Below, piece after piece: positions 32,188 through 63,790 of a DNA stretch of 64,000 bases. Origin of the DNA: Yuukianura sp. NJ FZ-2021. Lineage: Eukaryota. The position numbers and the translations under genes were made by a program. Below the pieces are notes generated by a model. That model saw nothing but the letters and a program-made list of their open reading frames with translations, did no database searches and was not told the DNA's origin. The first letter of the stretch is position 1. The number at the start of each line of letters is the position of its first letter. Where the stretch lies: the NCBI GenBank assembly GCA_046563655.1, contig CM102286.1:4092001-4156000 (forward strand), read 5' to 3'.

Positions 32188-34706
32188 ATGGATTTGTTCA
32201 ACTTTGTCTTAGGTTCGGTGACGCTTCTCGTAAATTTGTATGCAGATCAATATCAAAAGGAAGACCTTGAACTCACCTTGAAGGAACTTGAAAATGACGC
32301 TGGAATTGTAAAAATTAAAACATACGACTACATCATTGGTATTTAAACTTGATCAACTTGTTTTAAATCTCTTTTACTTCACAACATATTTAGTGTAAAA
32401 CTTATCTGAACTAAAACCCATATTCTTAAATTACTCTATCTGTATGTATTTGCGGGTTGAAGTTGGAGGCGGCGGCGCAGGATGCGTTTTAGCAAAACGC
32501 TTGTCCAAAATACATAATGTCTTGCTACTGGAAGCCGGTGGCGACCCCGTCCCACCGACGGATGCTTTGGTGTATTACGCAGAATATTCGACCAATCCAC
32601 GAATCAACTATGCTTACCCAACAGTACGATCGGATAAAGCGGGTTTAGCACGCGGAGGTGTTGGTGAACATTAAAACTTTTCCAAACAAATATGTTCAAT
32701 GTGTCCAAATATGTTTAAACGATGTTTCTTTGTTTAGGTGTTTGTAGAGCACACGGGAAAAATGCTGGGCGGCTCCATGTCCCACAATGGGTTAGTATTC
32801 AACCGCGGTCATCCAATGGACTTCGAAAAATGGGCGGAAATCACAAACGATTCGTCGTGGCGCTATGAAAATGTTTTGAAGTATTTCAAGAAGGCTGAAA
32901 AGTATATTGGGAAATATGACAGTATATGTAAGAATTTGAGTGGTAACAGATTACAAAACATTGTAGTTAAACATGCTGATTTAATGAATTTGTGTTAGAC
33001 GATAGAACACAACACGGATTTCATGGTCCAATGACAATTGATACTGCCGTAGCACCGTTACTTCCAATTTGGCTCAAAGCAGGTTCAGAACTTGGTTTCA
33101 ACACGAGTTATGATCCGAATAAACCTCAACAAGAAGGTGGCCAAACTGAATTTTGATATAAAATTGCAATTTTTCTACAAATTTTGAAAATTCTAAAACA
33201 GGATTTGTGGCTGAGGCTGTGTCACAACGTCGAGGACGCCGAGTGAGTACCTACACAGCTTATATCAAAGGAGGTTCAGCAGATGACTTACCACTCATTC
33301 CAAAATTAGGAAAGTTAAAAATTGAAAGATACTCGGTTGTTTCTGAGGTAATTTTGTTTCATTTTCAAACACATTTATAAAAAGTCAGAAGGATATGATA
33401 TACATAATATTTTGTTTTCAGATTCTTATTAAGAAGGGTGAAGCCTACGGCGCTTTGTACAGAAGACATGGAATTCCACAAATCGCGCATGCTACTAAAC
33501 AAGTTATCATCAGCGCAGGAACAGTCGGAACACCAATACTTCTCATGAACTCTGGAATTGGACCTGCAAATGTACTTAAAGAAGCTGGGGTAAGCAGTAT
33601 TAGCTGGATTTGGTGTTTTGTAGTTCCAAATTTCTGATAAGTAATTTACCAGATTCGCCCAGTGAAAGATCTTCCAGTAGGAATTGGAGTTGGCGAACAT
33701 CCACTGGCCTTTCTGCCTCCTTACACAATCAACTCAAATGCAAAGCACTTGTTTATTAATTTGAAGAAACAATTAACTGAAGAAGTGTTGAATCAGTTTC
33801 ATGATGAAGGAAGGGGGCCCTTGGTTGTGTCACTTGACGGACAAGCCTTTGTGGTGTCATCGCAGGCAAAAGCACAAGGTGAATCCAATTGGCCTGACCT
33901 CCTCCTGCAAATCGGTCAACCAGTATATTTTTTTGATGGTCCACCATCTTACTTTCTGGGGATCTACTTAGCGAGGTCAAAAACAGTCAACACTGGAAGT
34001 GTGGGATTCAACACAGACGCTTACAAACGTGGTAAAAGCAGGACCAAATTTAAGTTCAATTACTAGTTTAGCATTTTAAAAAATATGAATTTTTCTAGGG
34101 CTAAGAGATAGTGAAAGTCTCGCAATTCTGGACATAAATGTGCTTTCGACGGATGCTGACGTCGAATTGCTTCTGGAAGGTTAAGTCCTTAGGTCAATAC
34201 AAATTACACAAATTTTTCAGTTTTGTTTTTCAATGCTTTAGGCATCAAGTTTTATTTGAAAATCTTGGAAGGAACTACTGCGTTTAGAAAGATTGGTCTC
34301 AAAATTCAGGATCCAAAAATACCAGGGTGCTCTGACTATAAGTTCCGAACGGACGAGTACTGGAAATGCTACATCCGTCAAACCGCTGGAATCAGCTACC
34401 ATTTGACAGCGGGATGTCGCTTGGGGTTTGGCACTCAAGATTCCGGTGCCGTACTGGATTCCAAATTCAAGTACTAGCTTACTAAAAGCAATCAAAGCTA
34501 CCTTCATTTAGCGTAGCATAAATTTTCACAGAACTACTCCAATTCATATTTTTTAAATGAAATTTTTTCCTAGTGTTCTGGGTGTAAGCGGATTGAAAGT
34601 AGTCGATGCTTCGGCAATGCCGTTAACCGTAAACGCCAACACTGCAGCGACTGTTGTGATGATGGCAGAGAAAGCCGCTGCAGAAATTTTGGGAACCTTC
34701 GACTAA
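32188..34706 (+). CDS. Glucose-methanol-choline (GMC) oxidoreductase / glucose dehydrogenase-like, multi-exon
   Basis: ATG at 32188; FAD-binding YDYII|VGGGGAGCVLAKRLS...LLLEAG, GKMLGGSMSHNGLVFNRG, VIISAGTVGTPILLMNSGIGP, active-site region SYHLTAGCRLG, C-terminal VVDASAMP...NANTAATVVMMAEKAA, stop TAA 34704-34706. Short GT-AG introns link the ORF-track fragments; some exon borders are approximate. Confidence 0.92.
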
Positions 34707-34892: not shown

Positions 34893-37800
34893 TTAGAGCA
34901 ACTCAATTTCCAAATTTTCATAGGCCGATTTGAAATAATCGTGCAAAGTCGAAAACGCTGGACGACTTTTGGGTGCTGGATACCAACACTGGACCATTTG
35001 TGCGTAGCTGGAAAGAGAAAGTTAAAAATGAAAACTTTCGTATTTTCAAAATTTGTGTTAAAAAGTTTTATTAGGCAAACTCGCTCCACTTACATTTCGT
35101 CTGTCGCAAACTTGGGCTTGCTCATCCTCAGTCCATTTTCCAAATCAGTCACAAAATCAACGTTCCAGGAAAGCCCTGGAAATGGCATATCTCCCAAAGT
35201 AAATATTTCCCACAGCAGAACTCCGTAGGCCCAAACATCCGAGTATGTAGAAAATGTCATATTTTTTAAAGATTCAATGGCCATCCATCGCCAAGGGAGT
35301 GGCTCTTGACTTGACTTGACATATTGCGTGTACTCATACAAACGACGAGACAGGCCAAAATCTGAAATTTTTGCAACCCCTTCAGATGTCAGTAACACAT
35401 TTCTGGCAGCCAAGTCAGCATGGACAATCTACAACGAAAAAAAATACGTATAAGTTACACATTTTTAAAATTCATAAATTAAAAGCGTTTAATGGAAGAT
35501 TTTCACCTTTTTGGTTCCCAAGTAGTTCATTCCATTCGCAATTTCGTAAGCCCACCGCAGCAGGCTTGCCGTTGGAGGTTTTCGACCTGGGGCGTTGGCA
35601 TAGTCAATTGATTTCCTTCAAAATGAAACATTTTGCAAAATTATTGCAAAGTTAACGAGTCTGAAGTTTCTTTGGATACAAAATGTTTTGGTCTTACCAA
35701 ACATGATTGACGTATCTGTCTGAAAGTTCCTCGTTTTCCACATTGGTTTCATTTCCAGAGGTATCCACAACCACAAATGTTCTTGGAATTCCGCGTAAAT
35801 GACTCTCCAGACTTCCCATACCGCAACACTCGGAAGCAATGTACAAATGACCTACATATTTCCAAGAATTTGTGTTGAGACGGGATAATAATTATTAATC
35901 ACAATTACAATTAAGTCAGCGTAACGTAATTTCAGGCTTGGTTTCAGCATTTTAAACAAAACTTTTAATAAGAAAAGGTCTTACCATCTCTGAGGCCTTG
36001 CGTACTAGCTCCCACTAAGCGCAGAACATTTTCATGTCTTCCAATGTAGATCATGATTTTGATTTCAGCAAGAAGATTTTTTAGTTGCTTAGCAGTAGCA
36101 TTGGAATTCGGTCTCTTGAATGCAATGGGTTCATCCATTCCTTTAATTTTCCCTTTGTACACTGCACCAAATGCACCTTCTCCAAGAAGTTCAAGCTCAT
36201 CTAATTTCAAAAGTAAAGCATTGAATTAATGCAACGTAAAATTTTTTAGATCAAAACGTAGTTTTGAAGTAAAATTTTTAGTTATATTCTAAATACCTAT
36301 TTGAATTGAATCTGATGGCAATTCAAATGACTGATCGTAGGGAAGATCAAGAGCATTTTGTACTGTATCGTCGCTGTTTCCACCGCCAGTTTTTTTAACA
36401 CCGTCAAAAAATTCGCGAATTTCTTTTTCACTAAGTCTATCAATTTGTTTCTGTAACCACCAAGCAAGGCGTTAATTCACTTTCAAAAAATTTCCACTTC
36501 GTGCAAATTTTTTTTTGAAATTGCCGTTACCTTAGCCAGTTTCAATTTCCACAGGAGTACGCCAATGATTACCACGAGTACTGTAAGTATTATTCCAGCA
36601 AACGCGACAATCGAGAGTCCTTCGGATACTTCTGGTTCTAAAATTTAGAAAATTCAGACCATAATTCTTCAAATTTTCTTTCTAGACTATATACTGCTTC
36701 AAACTTTACCTGGAATTTTTTCTTTGATTGATTCAATGTTATCGTTATTCTCTAAATACCACCAGCCAAAATGTGATTCACCACCATTTGGGCCTTCTGG
36801 ATCCGTCAGATCCTTGGTGCTATTTGGATTTGTTCTCCATGGTTCGTCAAAAGCTCCGCGCATATAGACGCGTCGTTTCGTCTTGGACGTCCAAATATTC
36901 ATTTGTCTCCAGAATTTTTGTAAATTGCGTACGGTATTGTTAGAACCGAATCTGCTCACGCCTGCGCTAGGCCAACCCGTCTCCCATGTAACTTCTATGC
37001 TTGGATTGACTCTTTTGAATGCCGCTTCCTGTTCTAGCATCAACGTTCCAAGAGCAGTCACTGTAGCTTCAACTCCATTTCCAACTGCGTTTGCTGGTGG
37101 CATTAAGACGCAGATGAGAAAGTCCGAATTTTCAGCAATCCGTTGAATGTCACTTACTATTTCGCCTTGCGTTTCAGCATCTTTGTTGATTGATGGAGAT
37201 AAATTTTCAATTCTGAATAAAAGATTAACATCAAGTTCAATTTCAATTCAGTTTGATTTCAATTAGTTCAACTAAAGTAAAATTTTACCCTACTGCTGGA
37301 ACTTTCTTTTGCGTAATTTGTTCGCAAATATCCAATCGGATTCCAATTTTTAAACCTTGCGCATGAACCGTTGGACGAAATTCAAATAAAAATGTTGCGG
37401 CGTCTTTCCAACTGCGGTAGTAATCCATCCAGCTCAAACTCGTCAAAACCAATCCCCAAACAGTGTTTGGATAAATTTCATTTGCGATTCGGGCCGCATC
37501 TAGTCCGTTTTCAGCCTCTTTTTGAAAAAGATTGGAAGTACTGGAATGCCAAAATCCTTCGGCTAAGGTAATCAGAGGTTGGTTTGCTTCTGCGTTGATT
37601 TGAGCAGCAGCAACAGCAGTTAGGCCTTGAACGTCGCCAGTATTCCAGCTTTCGTTTGCACCTTTGATTAACCACATTCAAATTACTCTTCAATTCAATT
37701 TGGTAATGTAATTTTTTATTTCTAAAAAATGTTTAAGCTTACGTCCTGCACCCATACTATGCGTTGTCATATGTCCAAACTTTGTTGAAACAACACGTAA

Positions 37801-38063
37801 AAAGTACTTCACGTCCTCAAAGGTATAGTTTTTCCAATTTGGAATTGTGCCATCCTGGTTCCATCTCTTGATGTACGGAGTGAAAACTACGCCGGTATAT
37901 TCTCGATTGAATTCGTCCGATGTTGAATTTGTTGGCATAGATTCCTTTATTTAAAAGCAAATTTTTAAAATTTGATTAGAATTTTTTGATATTGAATTAA
38001 ACTTTTCGAAAGTCAGCTTACAGTTAAATGGACCAAGAGTAGTATTACGGCGTAAGTACGCAT
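34893..38063 (-). CDS. Receptor tyrosine kinase (PVR/VEGFR-like kinase domain) with GH17 glucanase-like ectodomain (~769 aa); exons 38063-38022, 37944-37743, 37661-37289, 37212-36710, 36637-36531, 36450-36297, 36200-35985, 35851-35698, 35615-35507, 35428-35094, 35007-34893
   Basis: Spliced 2310-nt frame without stops. Signal peptide MRTYAVILLLVHLT|ES; ectodomain motifs GVVFTPY, ETGWPSAG, AFDEPWR, ESHFGWW (GH17-like); TM LSIVAFAGIILTVLVVIIGVLLW; juxtamembrane LPYDQSFELP; kinase motifs LGEGAFG, AFK, EIKIM, HADLAARN, DFGLSR, LPWRWMAIES, SDVWAYG, CW..P..RP.F. Confidence 0.88.
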
Positions 38064-41868: not shown

Positions 41869-44093
41869 TTACAGCGGGCAGCAGAGGAGGGCGACGTTGT
41901 TCAAAGCAGTGTCGTCATCTAGAGAAAACAAAAATGGAAATTAGTTACATAAGCTAAAATTCGATCTGCAAGCGAAACGAAACCGAAACGTTTGGAATAT
42001 GAAAATACAGATGAGTCTCTAACTTAGAAACTGGGAAAAATACAAAACAAATGGCAATTCAGAATACAAAACTGGAAAGATAAACATTATTAAGGTAGGA
42101 CAAAATGAAACCAAAATGTACGAAAAGGACATCAGAGTAAGGAAATTTCCTATTCCCGTTTGTGCAATTGCCATTTGTTTTGTATTTTGCCCAGTTTCTA
42201 AGTTGCAGACTCCTCTGTAATCTGCTCGTGGGAAGCTATGGTTATATATCGCAAATGTTGTGTAACGAAATGTAACGTAATAAAAAAAAACGAAATCAGG
42301 TAATTTGGGCAGCGGATTTCGATTTTGTATTGAAGAGACAGTACTTACTGATGGAGTTTTGTGGAGGCTGAACTTGTGTCTTGAGACCGCAAATGGCGAA
42401 ACCTTCGTTACAAGTAAAGATGCTCTGCCAATCTCCCCAGCCATTGCCGTCTCCTTCGATAGCTTCAGTTGGATTTTCTGAACAAAACATTCGAATGTTG
42501 TTAGCAGCAGTGTTGTCAATGTGACCGCCTGCCTCCTGGCGAAGTTGGAAGCCAGTGATAAGTCCGCCATTTTGGCAGTAGTAGTAGTTTCCCCAACTGC
42601 CCCAGTTTCCTTCTTTGCTTTGCACAGTCGTACCCCATGTTGAGCAAACCAGTTTGAGGCCGTTCATGGAAGTATCATCGGATGCCAATTGATTTGACTC
42701 TGTCTTGACTTGGAATCCATTGGCCCATGATCCTTCTGGGCATCTGTCCACTTCGTTCGGATATGATCCCCAATCCGTAATGGCCTCAGAGTACATCAAG
42801 TAAGATCCATCTTTTAAAAAAACACTTTTTAAAATTTCAATTTTTCAAAAATTGTTAAAATCCAAAAGTCATCGAATAGCTCCAAAAATTACCGTCAGGT
42901 TCAGGAGTAGGTGCTGGTGGGCAGATTCCGGCGCCTGTAGAAATCAAATCTTTTGCTTCGTTTTTCAATTGTTGGTGGACAAGCTGATACCCAAGGCTAA
43001 TACAGGAGACTATAAGTTTTGAAAGAAAATTAATTTTTTCGTACTTAATCTTGAAAAATCACGACGTTCGCGTTTTATCAAAATTACGAAACTTACGGTC
43101 ACCACCAGCCATGATGTAAAGGTTACAATCCTGCGTCAAAAAATTGACTGGGTTAAAATCTAATTTCAGCACGAAATATTTTTAAAGCTAAAGATCTTAA
43201 TGTATAAGTGAATTTTTCTTTTGTAGGTACCTTGAAAATTTCATTGGAAATATTTAGGACTTGTTGATCCACAATTGGTTTGATTTTTGGCCAAACCAAG
43301 TCGAAGATTATTTTAATTGCAGGGTTAAAATCTTCCCAAATGAGTTCTCCGCCGTTGAGGAGCGTCTCGGTAGTGTTGAGCTCCAAGGCGTCAAATTGGA
43401 CGTGCGTTGAGGCTGCAGTTATTTCAAATGCTCCATCAAGTTTAACGTCCACGTCGAGATCCAAAGTGACAGCTCCATTGGTCAAGTCAACAGTGTAGTC
43501 GTCTCGTGATTGTACTTCAACTGCACCACCAAACAAAAGTACGTCAGCTTCATGCTTTCCTTCAATATGAAGCTTTGGAGCAACGAGCCAGTAGTGAACT
43601 TTAGCGAGAATTCCGACTTCAAAGGTCAAGTCATCAGTAATGTTTGAAGTTCCGGTGGCAACAGAGTGACTAAATTTAAAACAAGAAATTCAATTTCCCA
43701 TTTTTTAAATGAATTTCTGAAATTTCAAAAAAACTTACCAGAATGTTATGTTTCCAGCTCCATCTGGCAGAGTAATGTACACGTCATTGAGTTCAGCAGG
43801 ATCAGGCAGTTGTGGAATCACTGGAAAAAGTGGGTTGGACCTCTCAGTAATTTCTCCAAACAAAGCAAGGGCGAAGAGCCGTGCAAGCTTTTCTAAAAAC
43901 GAAAAAAAATAAAAATAAAAATAAAAATTTTGAAAAATAAAATAAAAGTTTACAAAATGATCAAATACTGTGACGCTTATGTCTTACGTTCTACTTCCGG
44001 TTCAAGTCCTGTAGTGTAGTCCTCCGGAAACGGGATGCTGATTGCACCACATACCGCCACCAAAAAAACGAGAATGCCAAAATGTTTCATCAT
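41869..44093 (-). CDS. Secreted two-domain protein: JHBP/takeout-like N-terminal domain + vitelline membrane outer layer protein I (VMO-I, beta-prism I) domain (~453 aa); exons 44093-43988, 43892-43739, 43669-43231, 43130-43097, 43009-42893, 42810-42349, 41918-41869
   Basis: Phase-consistent 1362-nt spliced frame. Signal peptide MMKHFGILVFLVAVCGA; Pro-rich linker CPPAPTPEPD; VMO-I repeats (WGSY..CPEGSWANGFQVK..DDTSMNGLKLVC; WGSWG..C..GFQLR..DNTAANNIRMFC; WGDW..C..AICGLKTQVQ..DDTALNNVALLCC*). The VMO-I call is strong; the JHBP-like call for the N-domain is weaker (IPQLPDP, GTSN, beta-rich core, long C-terminal helix). Confidence 0.78.
42006..42219. mobile_element. MITE-like element with ~54-bp inverted arms (TA|CAG...CTG|TA) in the last intron of the VMO-I gene
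   Basis: 42006-42059 is the reverse complement of 42166-42219 with about 4 mismatches; termini are TA-CAG and CTG-TA, as in Tc1/mariner-type elements; no transposase. Confidence 0.65.
43906..43947 (+). repeat. A-rich (AAAAT/AAAAAT)n simple repeat in an intron
   Basis: Several tandem A4-5T units directly visible. Confidence 0.6.
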
Positions 44094-48900: not shown

Positions 48901-51900
48901 CCTGTTGAGCATTTTTGGAAGTTAGCACAAAAAATTCAAAAGTTCAAAATTGCTGTTTCGGTTGTTGCATAAAATTCTTACCGGCGTTTCAGGTGCTATG
49001 AATTCCTCTTCAGTGACTCCGCTAAGTCGAATTGACCCTGAGTTGTCAACTGCCTCGTCCGTAATTTGCTTCACAGTCACGATTACTTTGGCCGTTGCGT
49101 GTTCATTACGAAATACGTCAGATACTTTGATCATAAGCTCATGGTCTCCTTCTGAAACTGATGGTCTCATGCTAATGGTACCATCGGCATAGTTCAGAAC
49201 AAAGTCAGGATGAGATGTGGACTCCCAAGCGAAAGACTTGTCAGGCAAATCCCAGTCGTCGAGGTCATTGACATATGCTCGTCCAATTGGAAATAAGTTC
49301 GTTTCCTTGTATTTGTAAACTAGGATACGACTTTCCCCATTAGTCATTGGATTGTCATTCAAATCCCCGATTACAATCGTCAAAATACTCGTTCCTGTTT
49401 GCTGCGGGCTTCCCGAATCACTAATTTCGATTGGAACTTGATAAATCTTGCGAGCTTCTCTGTCTATGTTTTCTCGGATAGCTCTCACAGTATTCCCTAA
49501 TCAAAATAAAAATCACAGGTATGACTTCGGTGACCTCACAAATTAAACCAGACTTCCTTTGCGGGCTTACCGACAACTTCGAACGTTCTTTTGGTCTCTT
49601 CGTCAGCAAGTTTTGAAAGACGAAAGGTGAAAGGCCCGCCATTAGTGTCATCGTCGTAATCAAGAGCCGTGAGATGAGTCACAACTCCAGTACCTTGGTT
49701 TTCGTTCCAAACAACTGGGTTTGTCTGCAAAAAGAAATTCCACAGTTTAACTAACATAACAATAACAATTAACACAACACTTGTAAAATATTCAAAGAAA
49801 ACGATCTTACCGAGTTCAGCAACGGCGGGTTATCATTAATATCCTGCAAAGAAAAAGACATTCAGCACATTTTAGTTTTTTGAAATACACCGCCGAGAAC
49901 TTTACGCATGCTTAACCACATCTAATTTTTAAATGGTTTTCTTAAACTACTCACCGTCAAGCTGACAATGAGTTCAACCAGGGTGGACAGTTTCGTTGGT
50001 GTGCTGCCATTTTCGTCAGAAGCTCCAATAAAGGCTTGGTGATATGGTACACCATTAGGAGGGTCTCGGTCTAACGGCTGAAATTTGCAATTCAAAGTTT
50101 AAAACACGCGTAAAGAGAAGTGCGACAATTATCATCACGCATGCACAATTGAAATTTTAGTATTCCGCATGGCTCACCTTCTTCACCCTGACACATCCTG
50201 TAGTTGGATGTACCGAAAAAGATTCTTGTGCCTTCTTGTCAACAAAGTAAAAAATTTGTTGTGGCAAGCTTCTGTCACCAATGTCAGGATCAAAGGCAGT
50301 GACTGTAAATATGCATCGGTCCGGCACCATTTCCTCCTGGATTGTCACTTTCTTATTCATTTCTTCAAAAACTGGCGGATTGTCGTTCACGTCTAAAAAA
50401 TATTTCAATAATTACTTACAAATATCTATGTATAGCTGAATTGCTCAATTAACTGAAAATGTAATTACTTGTTATGGCAATTAGCACTGTCGTGGTGACG
50501 TCATGGAACGAGTCAGAGGCTCTAACAGTCAACTTGTAGTTTCTCACTTTTTCGTAGTCAAGTGCCCTCTGGACAGTAATTATACCAGTCGTAGAGGTAC
50601 TTTTAATAAGAAAATGCCCTTCAGGATCTCCGTCTTCAATTGAGTACGTAATCACCGATTCTAAGACACAAAATATTCAAAATATTACAGTTTGCGTGCT
50701 TGCCAACAATCACGAAAACAGAAATACTTACCCGTATCAGGGTCTGTTGCCTTCACTTCAATGACAGTATTTCCAATGTCAGCATTCTCTGGAATTTCAG
50801 CCTTGTACCCGCCGTTAGGAACTTCAAACCTTGGGGAGTTGTCATTCTTGTCTGCGATCTCAATCTTAATCTGTTCTCTTCGTTCGTTCGGCAATCCTTG
50901 GGGATTGGGCTTCAAAATTGCAGAGGGAGCTCCGTCTCTAGCGATGACTTCCAGTTGAAAAATATCTTGGTTCTCTCGATCAAATGCTTTTCGAGTTTTG
51001 ATTTCGCCAGTGACGGAGTCGATGCTAAAGTCTTCTAAGAAATCCGCTCCCAATGAGTAGCTTACCTAAAACGCATTTTGATAATGAAAGAAAACAGTTT
51101 CATGGTACCCAAATTTCCTAAAAATCGAAAGTATTTCGGACTTACCAAGTTGTTTGGTGGAGTTCCGTCCTTATCAATTGCTTGAACACGCATGACAGAG
51201 GTACCTGGTGCTTCGTTCTCAAGTACACTTCCTTGCTTGACATCCGTGAAAAATGGACGCTCATCGTTCTCATCCTCTACTTCAATTCGCAGAACAGTTG
51301 TCACAGCCAAGTCATGTTTGTTCTACCAAAAAATAAATTGGACACATTAGTTTTCACAAGTTTTAAAGTCCAAAAATTTTTCGAACTTACCGATACACGG
51401 ACGGTGAGTAAGTACTGGTTGACCAATTCATAGTCCAACTGCTTCTCAACTCTAATTGACACTTTGTTCCCAGATGCTTCAGACGTGAAAATAGAATCCT
51501 TATTTGTTGCCTGTGTCTGTCCATTGAGCAATTCGAAGAAGACGAGAGAACTGTTGGGGATTCCTGAATTGGCTTCCAGGACGGCCACTGGAGTTCTTGG
51601 ATCATGACTCAGTTCCTTGATGTAAATTGGCTCAAGATGCTCGACCAGGAAGAACGGTGGCTTCTGGTTGGGTTCGACCACTCGAATAATAAGGTTTGTA
51701 CTGGATGTCTCTGGTGGATTCCCTCTGTCCGAAGCTTCAGCAACAACAGTGTAGATCCGTTCAGAGTCTCTGGAATCGGGGAATTTCCTTTTCAGTCGAA
51801 CTTCTCCAGTATCGATATTTACTTCAAAGTATTCCAAATCCTGGATGGAGCTTTGGAATGGATGAAGTCTGTATTGAACTGTCCCATTATTTCCGTCGTC

Positions 51901-54900
51901 AATGTCAGTCGCAGAAATTCTCATTACAACTCCACCTACGGCCATGTCACGTGGAATTGATTCCCGATATTCCTAGAAACAGAACATTAAATCATAAACA
52001 GCCGTAACGATTATCAAAACAATTTTAAAAATCAACACAGTCTCTCGATCTGTGGTCAGTTTACCTTACGTCTACCATATGCCTTTGTAAGCAGCATTTT
52101 AAAAAATACTCAATTTTATTCCATCATTGCCAAGTAATTTTTAATTCCACTTACGAATTTATCAAACATTGGTCGATTGTCATTGACATCCCGAATTGTA
52201 ACTTTGAGATTGCAAACATCATCAAGTTGTGGACGGCCGTTGTCAGTAGCTCGGACGGAAACATACGCCACTTTCTCTCGAGCTGGCTCGTCACGATCAA
52301 AGATCTAAAAAATACAGGAATCATATCACGCTTTCTTTCTTCAATCAAAACCGAATCGTTTTTGATTTACGACGTATAAAATACCTTATTGGTTCGAATC
52401 AATCCCGTTTGGCTGTCGACTACAAAATCGTCCGTCGTCTCTACAATGGAGTAAGTAACTCTTCCGCCAGCATTGGGCGGGTCAAGATCCTCTGCATGAA
52501 CTTGGATCACGGAAGTGTTGATTGGCTGTCCTTCGTACACGGCCGGAGCGTAGGATGAGCATAAAGTAAAAGTCGGCTTGTGGGCATTTCCCACAGTAGT
52601 ACCAAGCGTATTCACAACCTAAAACAAAATTCCCAAAAAACATTTAAAATTTTCCATTTCCGAAACATTTTTGAAGACAATCTTTGACCACAATTTACCG
52701 TGTAAGTTGCTGCCGAATGTGGACTTGTTGTGATGCCCGTGAAGCTCTCCATTCTAGGAGGCATTTCTCTGTCGGACCGACTGTGTCTGCGGTGGTGTCT
52801 GTGCATTGAGCCTGAAAAAAAAACCAAGAAAAATTAAATTTTTAGACTTTAGTTGTTTCATTCCCAAAATGAAGGTCTTGGTAATACACTAAATTATGCA
52901 TTAACATCCAATTCCAAATGCTCTCTTCGTTTCCCATTCACTTTTCCAGGGGGAATTTTCAAAAAACGTGGCTTTTCTACCCTCTTTCCCAGTTTGACAG
53001 ATTGCCAAAGTCCCCCTAAACTCATATTTATGATCTTTGGGGTGGAATATAGCGGTTAAAAGGAAACAAAGGCTTTTGGAGTCAGTCCATTCTGATTGAA
53101 TTTGAGTTTCTTTTTTCCATTTTCCAGCATCATTGACACTCCTGGCTGCTTTTCCCTCCAGTCAGTAGTCAACTTGATATTCAAAACCCGCTCCCGACTT
53201 TCTGGTGGTGTGAGAAAGAAATGAAAAAGCCACATTCGTGGATCTTTGGCTAGGGTAAGTCATAACCAGACACTCATGAACGGTAACTCATGAACCGCCA
53301 TTCTTAAGGACGTCAGTTTTTGACGTTATGCTTACGGACGGTTAGATTTGGATACTTTTAGGTTAAGTTGCTTAGCTTCTGTGTTTACAACACACAGTCC
53401 ATAATAATACATGTCCAGAAGTTACCGTACATGAGAGTCCCGGAATCGGAGAAGCGGAAGGGACAAAGGATCCCAAGTGGACTTAAGTGGAGAAGATCCT
53501 GCTGAGGGAAAGTGCGGGTTTCCATTTGAAAACGGTGAAAGCAGCGCCTGAATGATAATGCCCCTGACTTTCACTTCCTCCTCATCTTTGCTTCCAGTTC
53601 ACGTCCTGCCTAACTCCTTTCCCTCCAGTTCAAATCCTCCCTCCCTGCATAATCCCATCCACTTCATAAACCTCACAGATATCATTGAATCTAGAACAAT
53701 GACGACGAGAGAGTCGCTTCATCGAAGACGGAAAACAATCAGCCGGAGGGACAGCGCTAGAAACACTGTTAGTTTCAGAGATGAACGACATTTATGACAC
53801 TATCGCCATTCTCCATGTCCAAACTGTTCCAGAGCCTTTCTGTCAAAATCAGTTCTGGACACAATCCGAAATAGGCCAACTTTGCCACTTTCGGTTTTCG
53901 TTGTCGCTGACTCATTAACCTAACATAAACATAACCTGGAGATACTGAATTAGGTTGAAGGTGATTGATCCATGATCTGGTAATTAATCTCAGGGCAAAC
54001 AAGAAGCAACACAAAATGGAGATCCATTTAGAGCAGGAAGAAGGTTTTGATGGATGATTTTTTTCTGGCTATAAGAAAGAAAGAAAGGCAACCGGAAACT
54101 ACCCGCCATTTTCTTGAAGCTACCCGGCAAAAAATCTTGGGTAAACTAAAACTTCGTCCTCCCTCATCATTCCAAAGTTTACTTTAAATCAGAATGTGTC
54201 TCTCTCCTTCTGACGTTCTTGGAATAGTTTTTTCAAATTACCCGCCAGAGAAAAGAGGGGTGAAAAAAGAAAAGAGAGGAATTTTCGGGTAATTGGGAAA
54301 CGAGGGAATTCTTTTCTGAAAACAGAAAACTTTCGAAAAACCATGGAGATAGTTTACATTTCTACCCTCCGGTTGGCATGTTTTCTAAAAATTTGAAATT
54401 GAGAGGGAGGTTGCTCAGTTTTCATAAAAGCATGAAACGCTCTTTTAGAAAAAGATCTTCTGATTTATTGAAAACATTTCTTTTGATTTGTCTCTGGAGG
54501 ACAGATTGAAAGAAGTTTTCAAGTATCTTGACAACCATGACTTGGAAAAATTAAAAGAAATTTTTTCCTTTCAACTTTTTGAATTTGAACTCTCTTTAAT
54601 GTCAACTGGGCGAGATCCATGAGAATGAAAATGGCAATGACATATTCTGCCTCAGAGGCTTATGGTTTAAAACCCTTCACTTTAAAATAAAGTGATGATC
54701 CATATCTAAAGGACTCATCTACCCGAGGATTGTCAGGGATGATGACCTCGGACTTAGTGATTCCACGGTTCACAAAGTCACCAAGTCACAAAAATGCTAA
54801 AGTTAATGGCGACCCCCTTACACGCAACGGCTCTTTCTAGATCCGATTTCCCTTGCCATCGTTTCACTGGACTGGAATCCGTAATTCGAGATCTCGGAAA

Positions 54901-61132: not shown

Positions 61133-63790
61133 TTACATTCTGGATTGTGTACATAACTTTGTCCATGATGAAACCAGCATATTCTTAAATTCTGTTCTAA
61201 ATTTAGTAGCCATCATGTAATACAAGAGGAAATTTGTGGCAGAGTTAAAAATTATTGGTAAACAGGCTACGGTTTCAGCAACTTCCGGTTCTATGCCTTT
61301 CGAAATAAAAACCCAGTGAATTGTAGCACTAATGGAATTGCAAATGAAGAAGATTAGAACAATTGAAAGTAAAACTCTAGAGAGGGAATGGCCGCCATCT
61401 GTAGTATTTGAAGTACTAGAGATTAGTCGTCGTTTTTCTGCAGCTTTTGTGACCTGCAAATTCAAAAAAATTCAATGTTTTCATTCATTTTGACTTTTTA
61501 GCAACAAATTATCATGTTTTTGCTAATTACTTCTATCCAGATGAGTAAGTTGAGAATAGGAATAGACGCCAAGGGTATGGCGAAGACAAAGAAGTACCAC
61601 ATTCCCTTCTGATAGACGCTTTCATATATGGGGAATCTGTGAAGTTGGCGCGGAAAGTGGGAACTCCAATTTGGCGAGTCGGCGCGATAACTCCATTGAA
61701 TGAATTCAAACCATCGCGGTATGTTTAGTATCACTGAAAAAGCTAAAACAGAGAAGATGTAGCGTGTTGTGTTTTGAATTTTGAAAATTTGAGGAGCTCG
61801 AAACGGGTAGCAAATGGCTATGAAGCGTTCTACTGTGATTAAGAGTGTGATGTAGACAGATCCAGTGTAAGCTGAAATTTTCAAGTAAAAGAAATTTAGA
61901 ATTTCAAAATTTGGATGTCAAAATTTCAATTAATGATTTCGAACCTATTTGGTTCAATGGATAAGCAAAATAGCCATTGAAAGCCGAACGTACGAAGTCG
62001 TAACTAAACAAAAGTTGGAATTCTTCCACACTGACGAACGATGTAAGCAAATAGAGCGAATCGAACATCAAGAGACTCAGCATCAGAAAAGTCGTAGAAG
62101 TGCGCATTGTTCTGCGCATATATACAAGTACACTTAGACTATTAAACACTAGTCCAATTGTACACAATGTGTACACAAATGTTGTGTAGGAATAGTACAG
62201 TAAATCCAATGTTTCCAGTGTTATGTCCATTGTGGACACTCCAAGTGCCTGGAGCAGTTTGATTATCCTGGTCAACTGATCAACCTTGAAAACGTTAACT
62301 TCATAAGTCCAACCATTTTCGGTTCTGCTAAATAAAACTTGTTTCCCGCCAGCATAGATGTCTTCTGGAAGTGACACGTTCAAATAATTTTGAATTTGGC
62401 GCTGAAATTCGTTTCGAGTCCGCCGCCTTACGTCAGGTACAATGCTAACATGGAGCCTTTGCAGTTGTTGTACCACTTTATCCAAAACTCCCGGGCGTAA
62501 AACGTCATCAATTGAGAGGAGTAGGTTGTGTACATTTGGAAATAATTTCAGAAAATTTGGAATGATCTTATGAAATCCTTTACAATTCCACAGACCAAGT
62601 GAACCCAACATTGGAAATGGACGTATGTTGTGCACAGAAACGTCAATTTTTGATAGAATCAAAGCTTCTAAGGATGTTGGCAGCGAGTCCAGCACTACAC
62701 TAGGACAAATGCCTTCGAAGAAGTGACAACCAATGGACAGGATTGAAAGATTTCCCAACTGTTTGATGTCTTCTACATCTGAATTCCAGAAATACATGTG
62801 GTCGAGCCACAAAGTTTGAAAGTTTTCAGAAACCTTGAACTGCTTGATGTCAACATCACCGTAGGTCATGTTCAAAACAACCAGATTCGGAAATAGAACA
62901 GGATTCAGCGTTGACGTCCATCGTAAACTGAGGCGCCAACTAGTGAATTGCTCAAGCGTTCTATTTGGCAGTATCGAAATGTCAATTGCTTCATCTTGTA
63001 GCAAACTCACTTTCAGCTTTGTTGCAACTTTTGTTGTTTTCAAAATGTCCGCAACTTTTCCATTTAAATATTCATTGTTGTCTAAATCCACGTCAATCAT
63101 GGATCCCATCTTCAGCTGACGCACGTCCAATAAGCAGTAATACGCCGAAAATTTTGTAAAGTCAGACCAGATTCCAAAAATTAGTTTCCAGACACTCTGG
63201 TCCTTGATGTCAACTGCGTCAATTTCGGAATTGGTAAATTTCAACCTACCTTCCGTCGTATTTCCAGCAATTGAAAAGTTGACGTTTCTCAGTTCGGACA
63301 AACCGTTGCTTGTGATGGAAGTTTTGTAAAAGAAGATGATTGATTTCAATGATTTTACGGAATTCCAGTTTGAAGTTTTTAAAGTCGGGTTCAGTTGAAA
63401 TTCAAAGACGTTCAAATTTGGCAAGTAGACTTTCTTTGCCCGTGTTTTAGAATTTGAATCTGAGTCCCAGATGATATTTTGCAAATACACGGATTGCAAA
63501 TTTTGACAGTTCTGGAGAATATTCAGAAGCGTCTTTCGGTTGACCGTGGCGTATTTGACCTTAAACGTCGTCCATGTACAAAGGTTATGAAATATTCCAT
63601 CGCTTGTCAAGGTCTTTAGGTGTGTTGAATTTCCTTCAAGTTTGTATTCACTCTCCTAAGGAATTTGAGAACAAAATTTTGTTAACAAATTGGTAAGACG
63701 AATTGATATAATGTTAAAAAAACTTACAGACTGGAGGATTTCCCCTGAAGAAAATGTTAGGAATAACAGTAACAATTGAACACAACCCAT
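61133..63790 (-). CDS. Class A GPCR (FMRFamide/myosuppressin-receptor-like 7TM) with signal peptide and long LRR-like ectodomain (~811 aa); exons 63790-63728, 63655-61945, 61871-61531, 61453-61133
   Basis: Signal exon MGCVQLLLLFLTFSSG; LxxLxL-type repeats; then in the same exon TM1 GLVFNSLSVLVY and TM2 LLMFDSLYL; TM3 YTGSVYITLLITVERFIAICYPFRA; TM4 NIPRWFE; TM5 FAIPLASIPILN; TM6 IVLIFFICN; TM7 FNSATNFLLY; helix 8 KFRTEF. The 2436-nt spliced frame is phase-consistent. Confidence 0.82.

Follow-up and report, generated by a model that had tools for sequence, protein, structure and literature searches.

Gene Structure and Topology

In this study, we analyzed a stretch of 64,000 nucleotides from Yuukianura sp. 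NJ FZ-2021 (NCBI GenBank assembly GCA_046563655.1, contig CM102286.1, positions 4,092,001 to 4,156,000 of the forward strand; hereafter the window, in whose own numbering all positions are given), and in particular a gene on its minus strand, at 34893-38063, predicted to encode a receptor tyrosine kinase (RTK) with an ectodomain of the glycoside hydrolase family 17 (GH17) type. An earlier examination of the letters alone (hereafter the sequence-only reading) had proposed an 11-exon, phase-consistent frame at this position. The model was recovered when we rebuilt the gene from the three-frame translation and checked each junction: 11 exons in one phase-consistent frame, ten introns of 72-133 nt, each GT..AG, and a coding sequence of 2310 nt specifying 769 residues (769 codons before the terminal, and sole, stop), with all six of the GH17-like motifs then quoted present in the translation. 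We regard the gene as very probably real. A tblastn search with the model found no second copy of the receptor gene in the whole window.

The exons, all on the minus strand, follow the order expected of a type-I receptor. Exon 1 (38063-38022; donor gtaagc, phase 0) supplies the ATG and a hydrophobic N-terminus (MRTYAVILLLVHLT), which would act as a signal peptide. Exons 2 (37944-37743), 3 (37661-37289), and 4 (37212-36710), together spanning 36710..37944, encode the GH17-family ectodomain, a predicted (β/α)8 fold of residues ~15-374 with six N-x-S/T sites. Two positions in it are central to what follows: the codons of Ser156-Leu157 (37435..37440), which align with the "N-E" acid/base motif of clan GH-A, and that of Glu283 in WETGWPS (36981..36983), where the catalytic nucleophile is kept. 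Exon 5 (36637-36531) encodes a stalk and a single transmembrane helix, placed at about residues 381-403 by a hydrophobic-window scan and followed by KLKLAKK; exon 6 (36450-36297) encodes the juxtamembrane segment, with LPYDQSFELP; and exons 7 (36200-35985), 8 (35851-35698), 9 (35615-35507), 10 (35428-35094), and 11 (35007-34893, stop codon 34893-34895) encode a tyrosine kinase. The type-I topology is thus read off a hydrophobic exon 1, the six glycosylation sites of the ectodomain, the helix, the KLKLAKK that follows it, and the kinase. A helix occupies the place equivalent to that of the transmembrane segment, at 360-391, in the AlphaFold2 (AF2) model of P0028, a transmembrane-bearing relative from the springtail Orchesella dallaii.

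Integrity of the Fusion

That ectodomain and kinase form one gene, not two, had been claimed by the sequence-only reading, and the comparison with relatives, at the sequence level, points the same way. A metagenome contig of 4783 bp, L001, holds an orthologue on a single strand, with the same 11 exons in the same order and phases (exons 1 and 11 were placed by eye from the sequence) and likewise beginning with a hydrophobic first exon. For exons 3-10 the lengths in L001 and in the window are 373/373, 503/503, 113/107, 157/154, 219/216, 154/154, 112/109, and 335/335, the differences being zero or multiples of 3. The two ectodomains are 67.7% identical (pN 0.22; pS 0.79, saturated) and the two kinases 67%; identities so alike indicate purifying selection of comparable strength on the two halves. 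Among annotated springtail proteins, P0018 of O. cincta is collinear with the window protein over residues 24-762 (4e-137), and P0092 and P0067 of O. dallaii are collinear from the ectodomain to the kinase C-lobe. In two assembly contigs, P0133 and P0140, the GH17 part, transmembrane helix, juxtamembrane segment, and kinase N-lobe lie in one open frame, which looks as if it passes through a read-through in-frame intron before the N-lobe.

An artifact, in which two independent genes, one for a GH17-like protein (secreted or anchored) and one for a kinase, merely stand head to tail, could draw on the predicted status of the splice junctions in the window and on four relatives (P0020, P0028, P0053, and P0082) that end after the juxtamembrane segment. 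Yet it would have to accommodate the order, strand, and phases shared with L001, the three collinear Orchesella proteins, and the single frames of P0133 and P0140, as well as two features of the locus itself: the introns on either side of the transmembrane exon measure merely 72 and 80 nt, and a kinase gene that began with exon 5 or 6 would have neither an in-frame start codon nor a signal sequence of its own. We consider this explanation extremely improbable. The four shorter relatives stop exactly at the end of window exon 6 (…Y.KSYEI.KD.L.I); they may be truncated gene models, short contigs, or real kinase-less decoy receptors.

Homology and Fold of the Ectodomain

The GH17-like character proposed for the ectodomain is borne out by alignments along its full length. 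In the spliced protein, residues 23-363 align with P0002, its closest relative over the whole domain, at 39% identity (2.5e-66), and residues 17-360 with P0019, a GH17 protein of Nitrospira, at 31% (6.6e-44). Three solved structures were matched by a family profile (alignment A2: 32 family rows, 365 positions): 6fcg, a GH17 endo-laminarinase (1.4e-17, profile positions 11-319), 4wtp, a GH17 transferase of Rhizomucor (1.4e-12), and a potato GH17 (5.8e-4). The sequence-only reading had expected domain searches, as well as AlphaFold with Foldseek, to return a GH17 barrel. Per-exon Pfam placed PF00332 (Glyco_hydro_17) on exon 4, at profile positions 229-294 of 306, with E=0.0069 and 16.5 bits, under the 28.2-bit cut-off; across the family, PF00332 matched 13 of 41 members at E<=0.01. 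Folding was run on two relatives only, P0002 (predicted local distance difference test, pLDDT, 94.1) and P0028 (pLDDT 88.9). For both AF2 models the top four Foldseek matches in the PDB were the GH17 structures 6fcg, 4wtr, 4wtp, and 8akp (E 6.6e-15 to 2.9e-10), with plant GH17 and GH157 laminarinases next in rank. The ESM Atlas returned GH17 leads only (feature scores 0.85-0.87, structure TM 0.63-0.67) and no new architecture or taxon, and per-exon Pfam gave no match to an immunoglobulin (Ig) domain in any ectodomain exon. Overall, sequence comparison and modeled folds identify the ectodomain as a GH17 homologue with a predicted TIM barrel.

Catalytic State of the Barrel

The enzyme-type members of alignment A2 read ...PGTVxGLxFTNEY, and their N-E column, which we take to be the acid/base position of clan GH-A at the end of strand 4, aligns with GNE of 6fcg and GSE of 4wtp. 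The window protein instead reads VWGLVLTSLSW: Ser156-Leu157 stand in place of N-E, and L001 carries the same S-L pair. Glu283, the nucleophile expected at the end of strand 7, is on the other hand kept in both, in the column of the residue turned to Ala in the active-site mutant 4wtr. The pattern extends to the family. N-E is present in none of the 16 transmembrane- or kinase-bearing rows having those columns, the residues at the acid/base column being L, Q, I, W, R, D, K, or N, and the nucleophile column of the same rows holds Glu in 12 and Gln in four. Both N-E and the nucleophile are found in the 14 rows with neither transmembrane helix nor kinase, which include P0019 and its cluster mates (Nitrospira), four proteins with bacterial-type extra domains, and one from the springtail Allacma. 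The sequence-only reading had listed A.RIANEIYPNTV among the GH17 motifs; this is the AN.I.PGTV stretch before strand 4, not the catalytic NE. Glu143 of RIANEIY was considered as the acid/base and rejected, as it sits in that conserved stretch upstream of the N-E columns and is itself a variable position.

Beyond the active site, 44 positions are constant across 11 enzyme-type sequences (alignment A4). The window protein keeps 28 of them, and other RTK-type members 20-28, core positions being retained. The 16 changes are Y56H, Q102H, F136L, N138S, E139L, G176E, N201V, Y203M, G242W, F253R, N254F, Y266F, F284R, K292R, S293T, and G311S. Because the N-E acid/base is missing and 16 of the 44 invariant positions are changed, we read the domain as probably a pseudo-enzyme, that is, a binding module with a remodeled pocket.

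Could the ectodomain still be an enzyme, a membrane-anchored β-1,3-glucanase or transglycosylase that uses another acid/base residue or a cofactor, with the kinase reporting or regulating catalysis? The nucleophile Glu is kept in the window protein, in L001, and in those 12 of 16 rows. Moreover, the canonical acid/base is dispensable in some glycosidases, for example myrosinase. Yet the substitutes for N-E vary from row to row, with no conserved alternative catalytic residue there, four rows have exchanged the nucleophile itself for Gln, and more invariant positions are lost besides. We thus hold retained catalysis to be improbable, and continue with the non-catalytic binding module as the preferred reading.

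One family protein of a different build, P0025 (734 aa, from a metagenome), combines GH17 with an Ig-like domain, falls within the bacterial clade described below, and has D in the acid/base column and A in the nucleophile column; its sequence marks it as a bacterial multidomain enzyme, not an animal receptor.

The Kinase and Juxtamembrane Segment

PF07714 was found on exons 7, 9, 10, and 11, most strongly on exon 10 (4e-39), which encodes the C-lobe. In the PDB ranking for exon 10, rank one went to an odd EGFR-labeled chain lacking any single matched stretch; below it the ranking runs VEGFR1 (1.6e-33), PDGFR alpha and beta (~7e-30), VEGFR2, RET, FLT3, KIT, and CSF1R. The intact PVR/VEGFR-like kinase described by the sequence-only reading is thus recovered, with its catalytic motifs in place: GEGAFG, Lys489, Glu506, HADLAARN (His623-Ala624-Asp625), and DFG at 643-645. 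From these motifs the kinase looks active. Ranked by PDB matches, it is predicted to be nearest to the PDGFR/VEGFR (Pvr) class. A kinase insert of ~45 aa fits the fact that most of exon 8 is unmatched by Pfam, between profile positions 72 and 96, and the C-terminal tail is very short. The juxtamembrane LPYD-type motif occurs in 11 of 12 family members checked; the window version, LPYDQSFELP, presumably corresponds to the LPYD..WEFPR of Kit and VEGFR.

Kinase insert, LPYD motif, and single-pass type-I topology are all shared with RTKs of the PDGFR/VEGFR class (insect Pvr; VEGFR1/2, PDGFR, KIT, FLT3). The window protein differs from them in its very short tail, in HAD for HRD, the Arg being replaced by Ala (non-RD), and above all outside the membrane. 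Class III/V RTK ectodomains consist of five to seven immunoglobulin-like domains; since that of the window protein is a GH17-type barrel without Ig domains, the protein is not a canonical class III/V member. Non-RD kinases are linked with pattern-recognition receptors.

Family Members and Their Distribution

An exhaustive HMMER search with exon 4 against 1.84 billion representatives yielded 98 relatives, 43 of which were scanned with Pfam. PF00332 was found in 15 and PF07714 in seven, and none of the seven PF07714-bearing members had PF00332 at E<=0.001. The combination has been missed by automatic annotation because the Pfam GH17 model misses the kinase-bearing ectodomains; springtail members are accordingly auto-named "VEGFR1" or "Kit" in public proteomes, a systematic annotation error that the present analysis exposes. 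A look-up of 30 proteins by name, together with a profile search, gave as named springtail sources O. cincta, O. dallaii (at least 10 different proteins, some of whose genes are probably clustered), Allacma fusca, and Folsomia candida; other named sources were Nitrospira and one oribatid mite record (Medioppia), and no further animal group appeared among the hits that carry a name. Further searches added little. A profile word search with alignment A3 gave at least 10 matches, with two new members and no new taxa among the matches listed, and a word-index search with exon 4 among longer proteins returned none that scored. A metagenome scan with exon 4 alone gave 83 pattern matches, none of them relatives; L001 was found by a metagenome scan with alignment A1. 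The family splits into several deep clades and, as far as sequence relationships tell, the architecture is that of a diversified springtail family, not a singleton.

In the mite record, P0003 (Medioppia subpectinata CAG2110695.1, 822 aa), the C-terminal half of an enzyme-type GH17 domain (VMIGETGWPS) is combined with a tetraspanin and a RING finger, a combination that probably reflects a merging of gene models. The record hints either at a wider occurrence of this GH17 subfamily, extending to mites, or at contamination of the assembly.

Three Orchesella proteins show the full architecture: ODM95569.1 of O. cincta ("Vascular endothelial growth factor receptor 1") and CAL8121113.1 and CAL8121490.1 of O. 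dallaii have the same order of GH17-like barrel, transmembrane helix, LPYD juxtamembrane segment, and tyrosine kinase, align collinearly with the window protein for ~730 residues, and all miss the acid/base NE. They differ from it in their identity to the window protein (32-34%), in belonging to other clades of the family, and in carrying automatic names taken from the kinase half. The sequence-only reading had known of no characterized animal example. As regards descriptions this still stands: full-text literature searches returned no paper in which GH17 is connected with a tyrosine kinase of animals, and, to our knowledge, the ectodomains of animal RTKs come from a small set of known modules, among which a glycoside hydrolase barrel does not figure. 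As regards the proteins themselves it does not, a springtail family being already in public proteomes. Thus, the receptor design is apparently undescribed, though present in databases under misleading names.

Origin of the GH17 Domain

In a scan of prokaryotes (one genome per species, query alignment A4), 540 of 581 matched stretches encode relatives. The nearest to P0002 come from filamentous cyanobacteria (44-50%), Nitrospira defluvii (45%), a Hyphomicrobiaceae metagenome-assembled genome, and Planctomycetota; sequences of Rhodanobacteraceae and Pseudomonas are distant from it (21-27%) and served as the outgroup. By every score seen, fungal and plant GH17 are more distant than bacterial ones. 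The bacterial GH17 endo-β-1,3-glucanases, among them the Formosa endo-laminarinase 6fcg and the cyanobacterial, Nitrospira, and Planctomycetota homologues, share fold and family with the window ectodomain, including the ETGWPS, FDEPWK, and HFG stretches. They are soluble or cell-surface enzymes that keep N-E and all 44 invariant positions, unlike the window protein with its S-L pair, changed invariant positions, introns, transmembrane helix, and kinase.

A first tree, without outgroup, had a weak backbone. In the rooted tree (56 rows, quick search) the rows from cyanobacteria, Nitrospira, and Planctomycetota are grouped in a single clade (SH-aLRT 100), a 22-row clade (SH-aLRT 89) takes in every one of the 16 RTK-type rows, and the rows of Folsomia, Allacma, P0007, and P0002 stand beside the bacterial clade with support of 86-87. 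As the bacterial clade lies beside the secreted springtail forms, and not outside all arthropod rows, the tree does not tell in which direction the transfer went. A constraint grouping all 28 non-bacterial rows, a group defined after the tree had been seen, scored 5.96 log-likelihood units better than the result of the free search, and the single arthropod clade was not rejected by the approximately unbiased (AU) test (p-AU 0.71). Overall, the data fit a scenario, drawn from sequence relationships, of one bacterial acquisition and one kinase fusion, after which N-E was lost and the family diversified. The horizontal acquisition envisaged by the sequence-only reading is therefore plausible, with bacterial proteins, and not the fungal Bgl2/Scw type, as the closest relatives; direction and number of events are suggested by the patchy distribution in animals. 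The genome paper of O. cincta speaks of 253 genes gained by horizontal transfer, a set rich in carbohydrate enzymes and including a "beta-glucanase," and tyrosine kinases are not mentioned in the passages concerned. In whitefly, plant-derived secreted GH17 enzymes have been reported.

Function and Comparison with Known Systems

With moderate confidence, we propose that the gene encodes a type-I RTK of a springtail-like soil-hexapod family, with a non-catalytic, GH17-derived ectodomain, a Pvr-like kinase module, and a glycan ligand. A bacterial-type GH17 domain would have been attached, probably once, to the transmembrane-juxtamembrane-kinase module of a PDGFR/VEGFR (Pvr)-like receptor. The ligand would sit in the former substrate groove, our best guess being a polymeric glycan, such as fungal β-1,3-glucan. 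If multivalent, such a ligand could draw receptors together, so that the clustered kinases would phosphorylate each other, and the cell might respond with immune defense or by sensing fungal food. Taken separately, a function in sensing some glycan appears to us evenly balanced, and β-1,3-glucan as the particular ligand less likely than not. The β-1,3-glucan receptor of the sequence-only reading has therefore kept its receptor architecture, while its specific glucan claim is weakened by the missing acid/base and the 16 changed invariant positions.

Several observations weigh against the proposal. As regards the ligand, β-1,3-glucan binding, plausible as it is, is a guess that cannot be read from the sequence, and the ancestral glucan specificity may have been lost: the 16 changed positions are scattered along the domain (including Q102H, N138S, E139L, N201V, Y203M, and F284R), most of them also vary between paralogues, and their assignment to the sugar groove follows only from the GH-A topology as we presume it to be. 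As regards the protein, the splice junctions are predicted ones, the direct Pfam score of exon 4 (16.5 vs. 28.2 bits) lies under the gathering threshold, and the folds are those of P0002 and P0028, at 39% and 31% identity, not of the spliced ectodomain of the window. As regards the origin, arthropods were not monophyletic in the free tree, the group in the AU test was chosen post hoc, and both trees, obtained by quick searches, have long branches and hold no fungal or plant GH17.

The same barrel could instead serve another ligand, be it an endogenous protein growth factor, a self glycan, or some other environmental molecule, with a role in development or chemosensing. The 16 of 44 enzyme-invariant positions that have changed, and done so differently among paralogues, would be in keeping with this, as would the growth-factor-receptor type of the kinase and juxtamembrane module and the several deep clades of the family, a pattern seen in ligand-diversified receptor families. 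Yet the nucleophile Glu, the ETGWPS strand, FDEPW(K/R), and HFGWW, all typical GH17 stretches, are retained, the latter three at what we take to be the groove; springtails live among fungi and eat them; and no candidate endogenous ligand is known. We deem a ligand of this other kind unlikely, and so return to the glycan-sensing receptor as the preferred proposal.

In its broadest form, that proposal would make the expanded RTK family a set of pattern-recognition receptors: a bacterial GH17 domain captured, disabled, and joined by exon shuffling to a Pvr-type kinase, with the grooves of the paralogues diversified for microbial or dietary glycans. We find this possible, if somewhat unlikely. A partial precedent exists in the arthropod betaGRP/GNBP proteins, whose glucanase-derived domain has lost its catalytic residues and is kept for microbial glycan recognition. 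Unlike the window protein, these have a GH16 β-jelly-roll, are soluble, and act via protease cascades and Toll. Plant CHRK1, a chitinase-related receptor-like kinase, likewise carries a carbohydrate-enzyme-like ectodomain on a transmembrane kinase, although that ectodomain is GH18-like and the kinase a Ser/Thr receptor-like kinase. According to a statement in PMC3531485, which cites Reidling 2000, the "sweet tooth" domain of Hydra was first found in the ectodomain of an RTK. The Hydra Sweet Tooth receptor thus shows a lectin-like ectodomain to be possible in an animal RTK. It uses C-type lectin-like domains, and a GH17 barrel is present neither in it nor in CHRK1.

The GH17 domain is, in any case, conserved in an animal under purifying selection and diversified into a kinase-fused family. 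Should the ligand prove to be a microbial glycan, the family would offer a compact case of a receptor class newly created by horizontal transfer and domain shuffling, an animal counterpart of receptor-kinase immunity in plants, and a way into fungus sensing by fungus-feeding soil animals. Should the pattern-recognition reading hold, it would amount to a direct route from glycan to tyrosine kinase in an animal, independent of GNBP and Toll.

Neighboring Genes

The genes around that of the receptor are of kinds usual in animals (a GMC oxidoreductase, an Ig-domain membrane protein, VOMI, JHBP-like, and DE-cadherin-like proteins), making contamination unlikely. A multi-exon GMC oxidoreductase gene at 32399-34700 on the plus strand (PF00732 1.1e-08 and 2e-08; PF05199 2.8e-07) is convergent with the receptor gene: it points at the 3' end of the latter, and its last exon stops ~200 nt from the receptor stop codon. 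On the minus strand, a VOMI-domain open reading frame (ORF) (PF03762, 2.6e-39) adjoins a JHBP-like one with a weak match below cut-off (PF06585, 1.4e-05), at 42296-42844 and 43153-43689. Further along the same strand, a DE-cadherin-like gene with cadherin-repeat exons lies at 48922-51972; its exons match best a metagenome protein (61%), then, among named sequences, the DE-cadherin of Allacma fusca (43%), followed by matches in insects (30-42%). Taken with the distribution of the receptor family, this would place the DNA in a hexapod, probably a springtail. At 61904-63655, again on the minus strand, there is an open frame of 583 aa with a leucine-rich look and hydrophobic stretches toward its C-terminal end, for which Pfam gave no match at E<=0.001. 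On the plus strand, the segment 17859-20394 holds an ORF resembling a leucine-rich repeat (LRR) C-terminal region ("NPWECDC," without Pfam match) and then one of 427 aa that combines a single Ig domain (PF07679, 1.6e-09) with a hydrophobic segment and a long tail of low complexity; together they may encode an LRR-Ig membrane protein.

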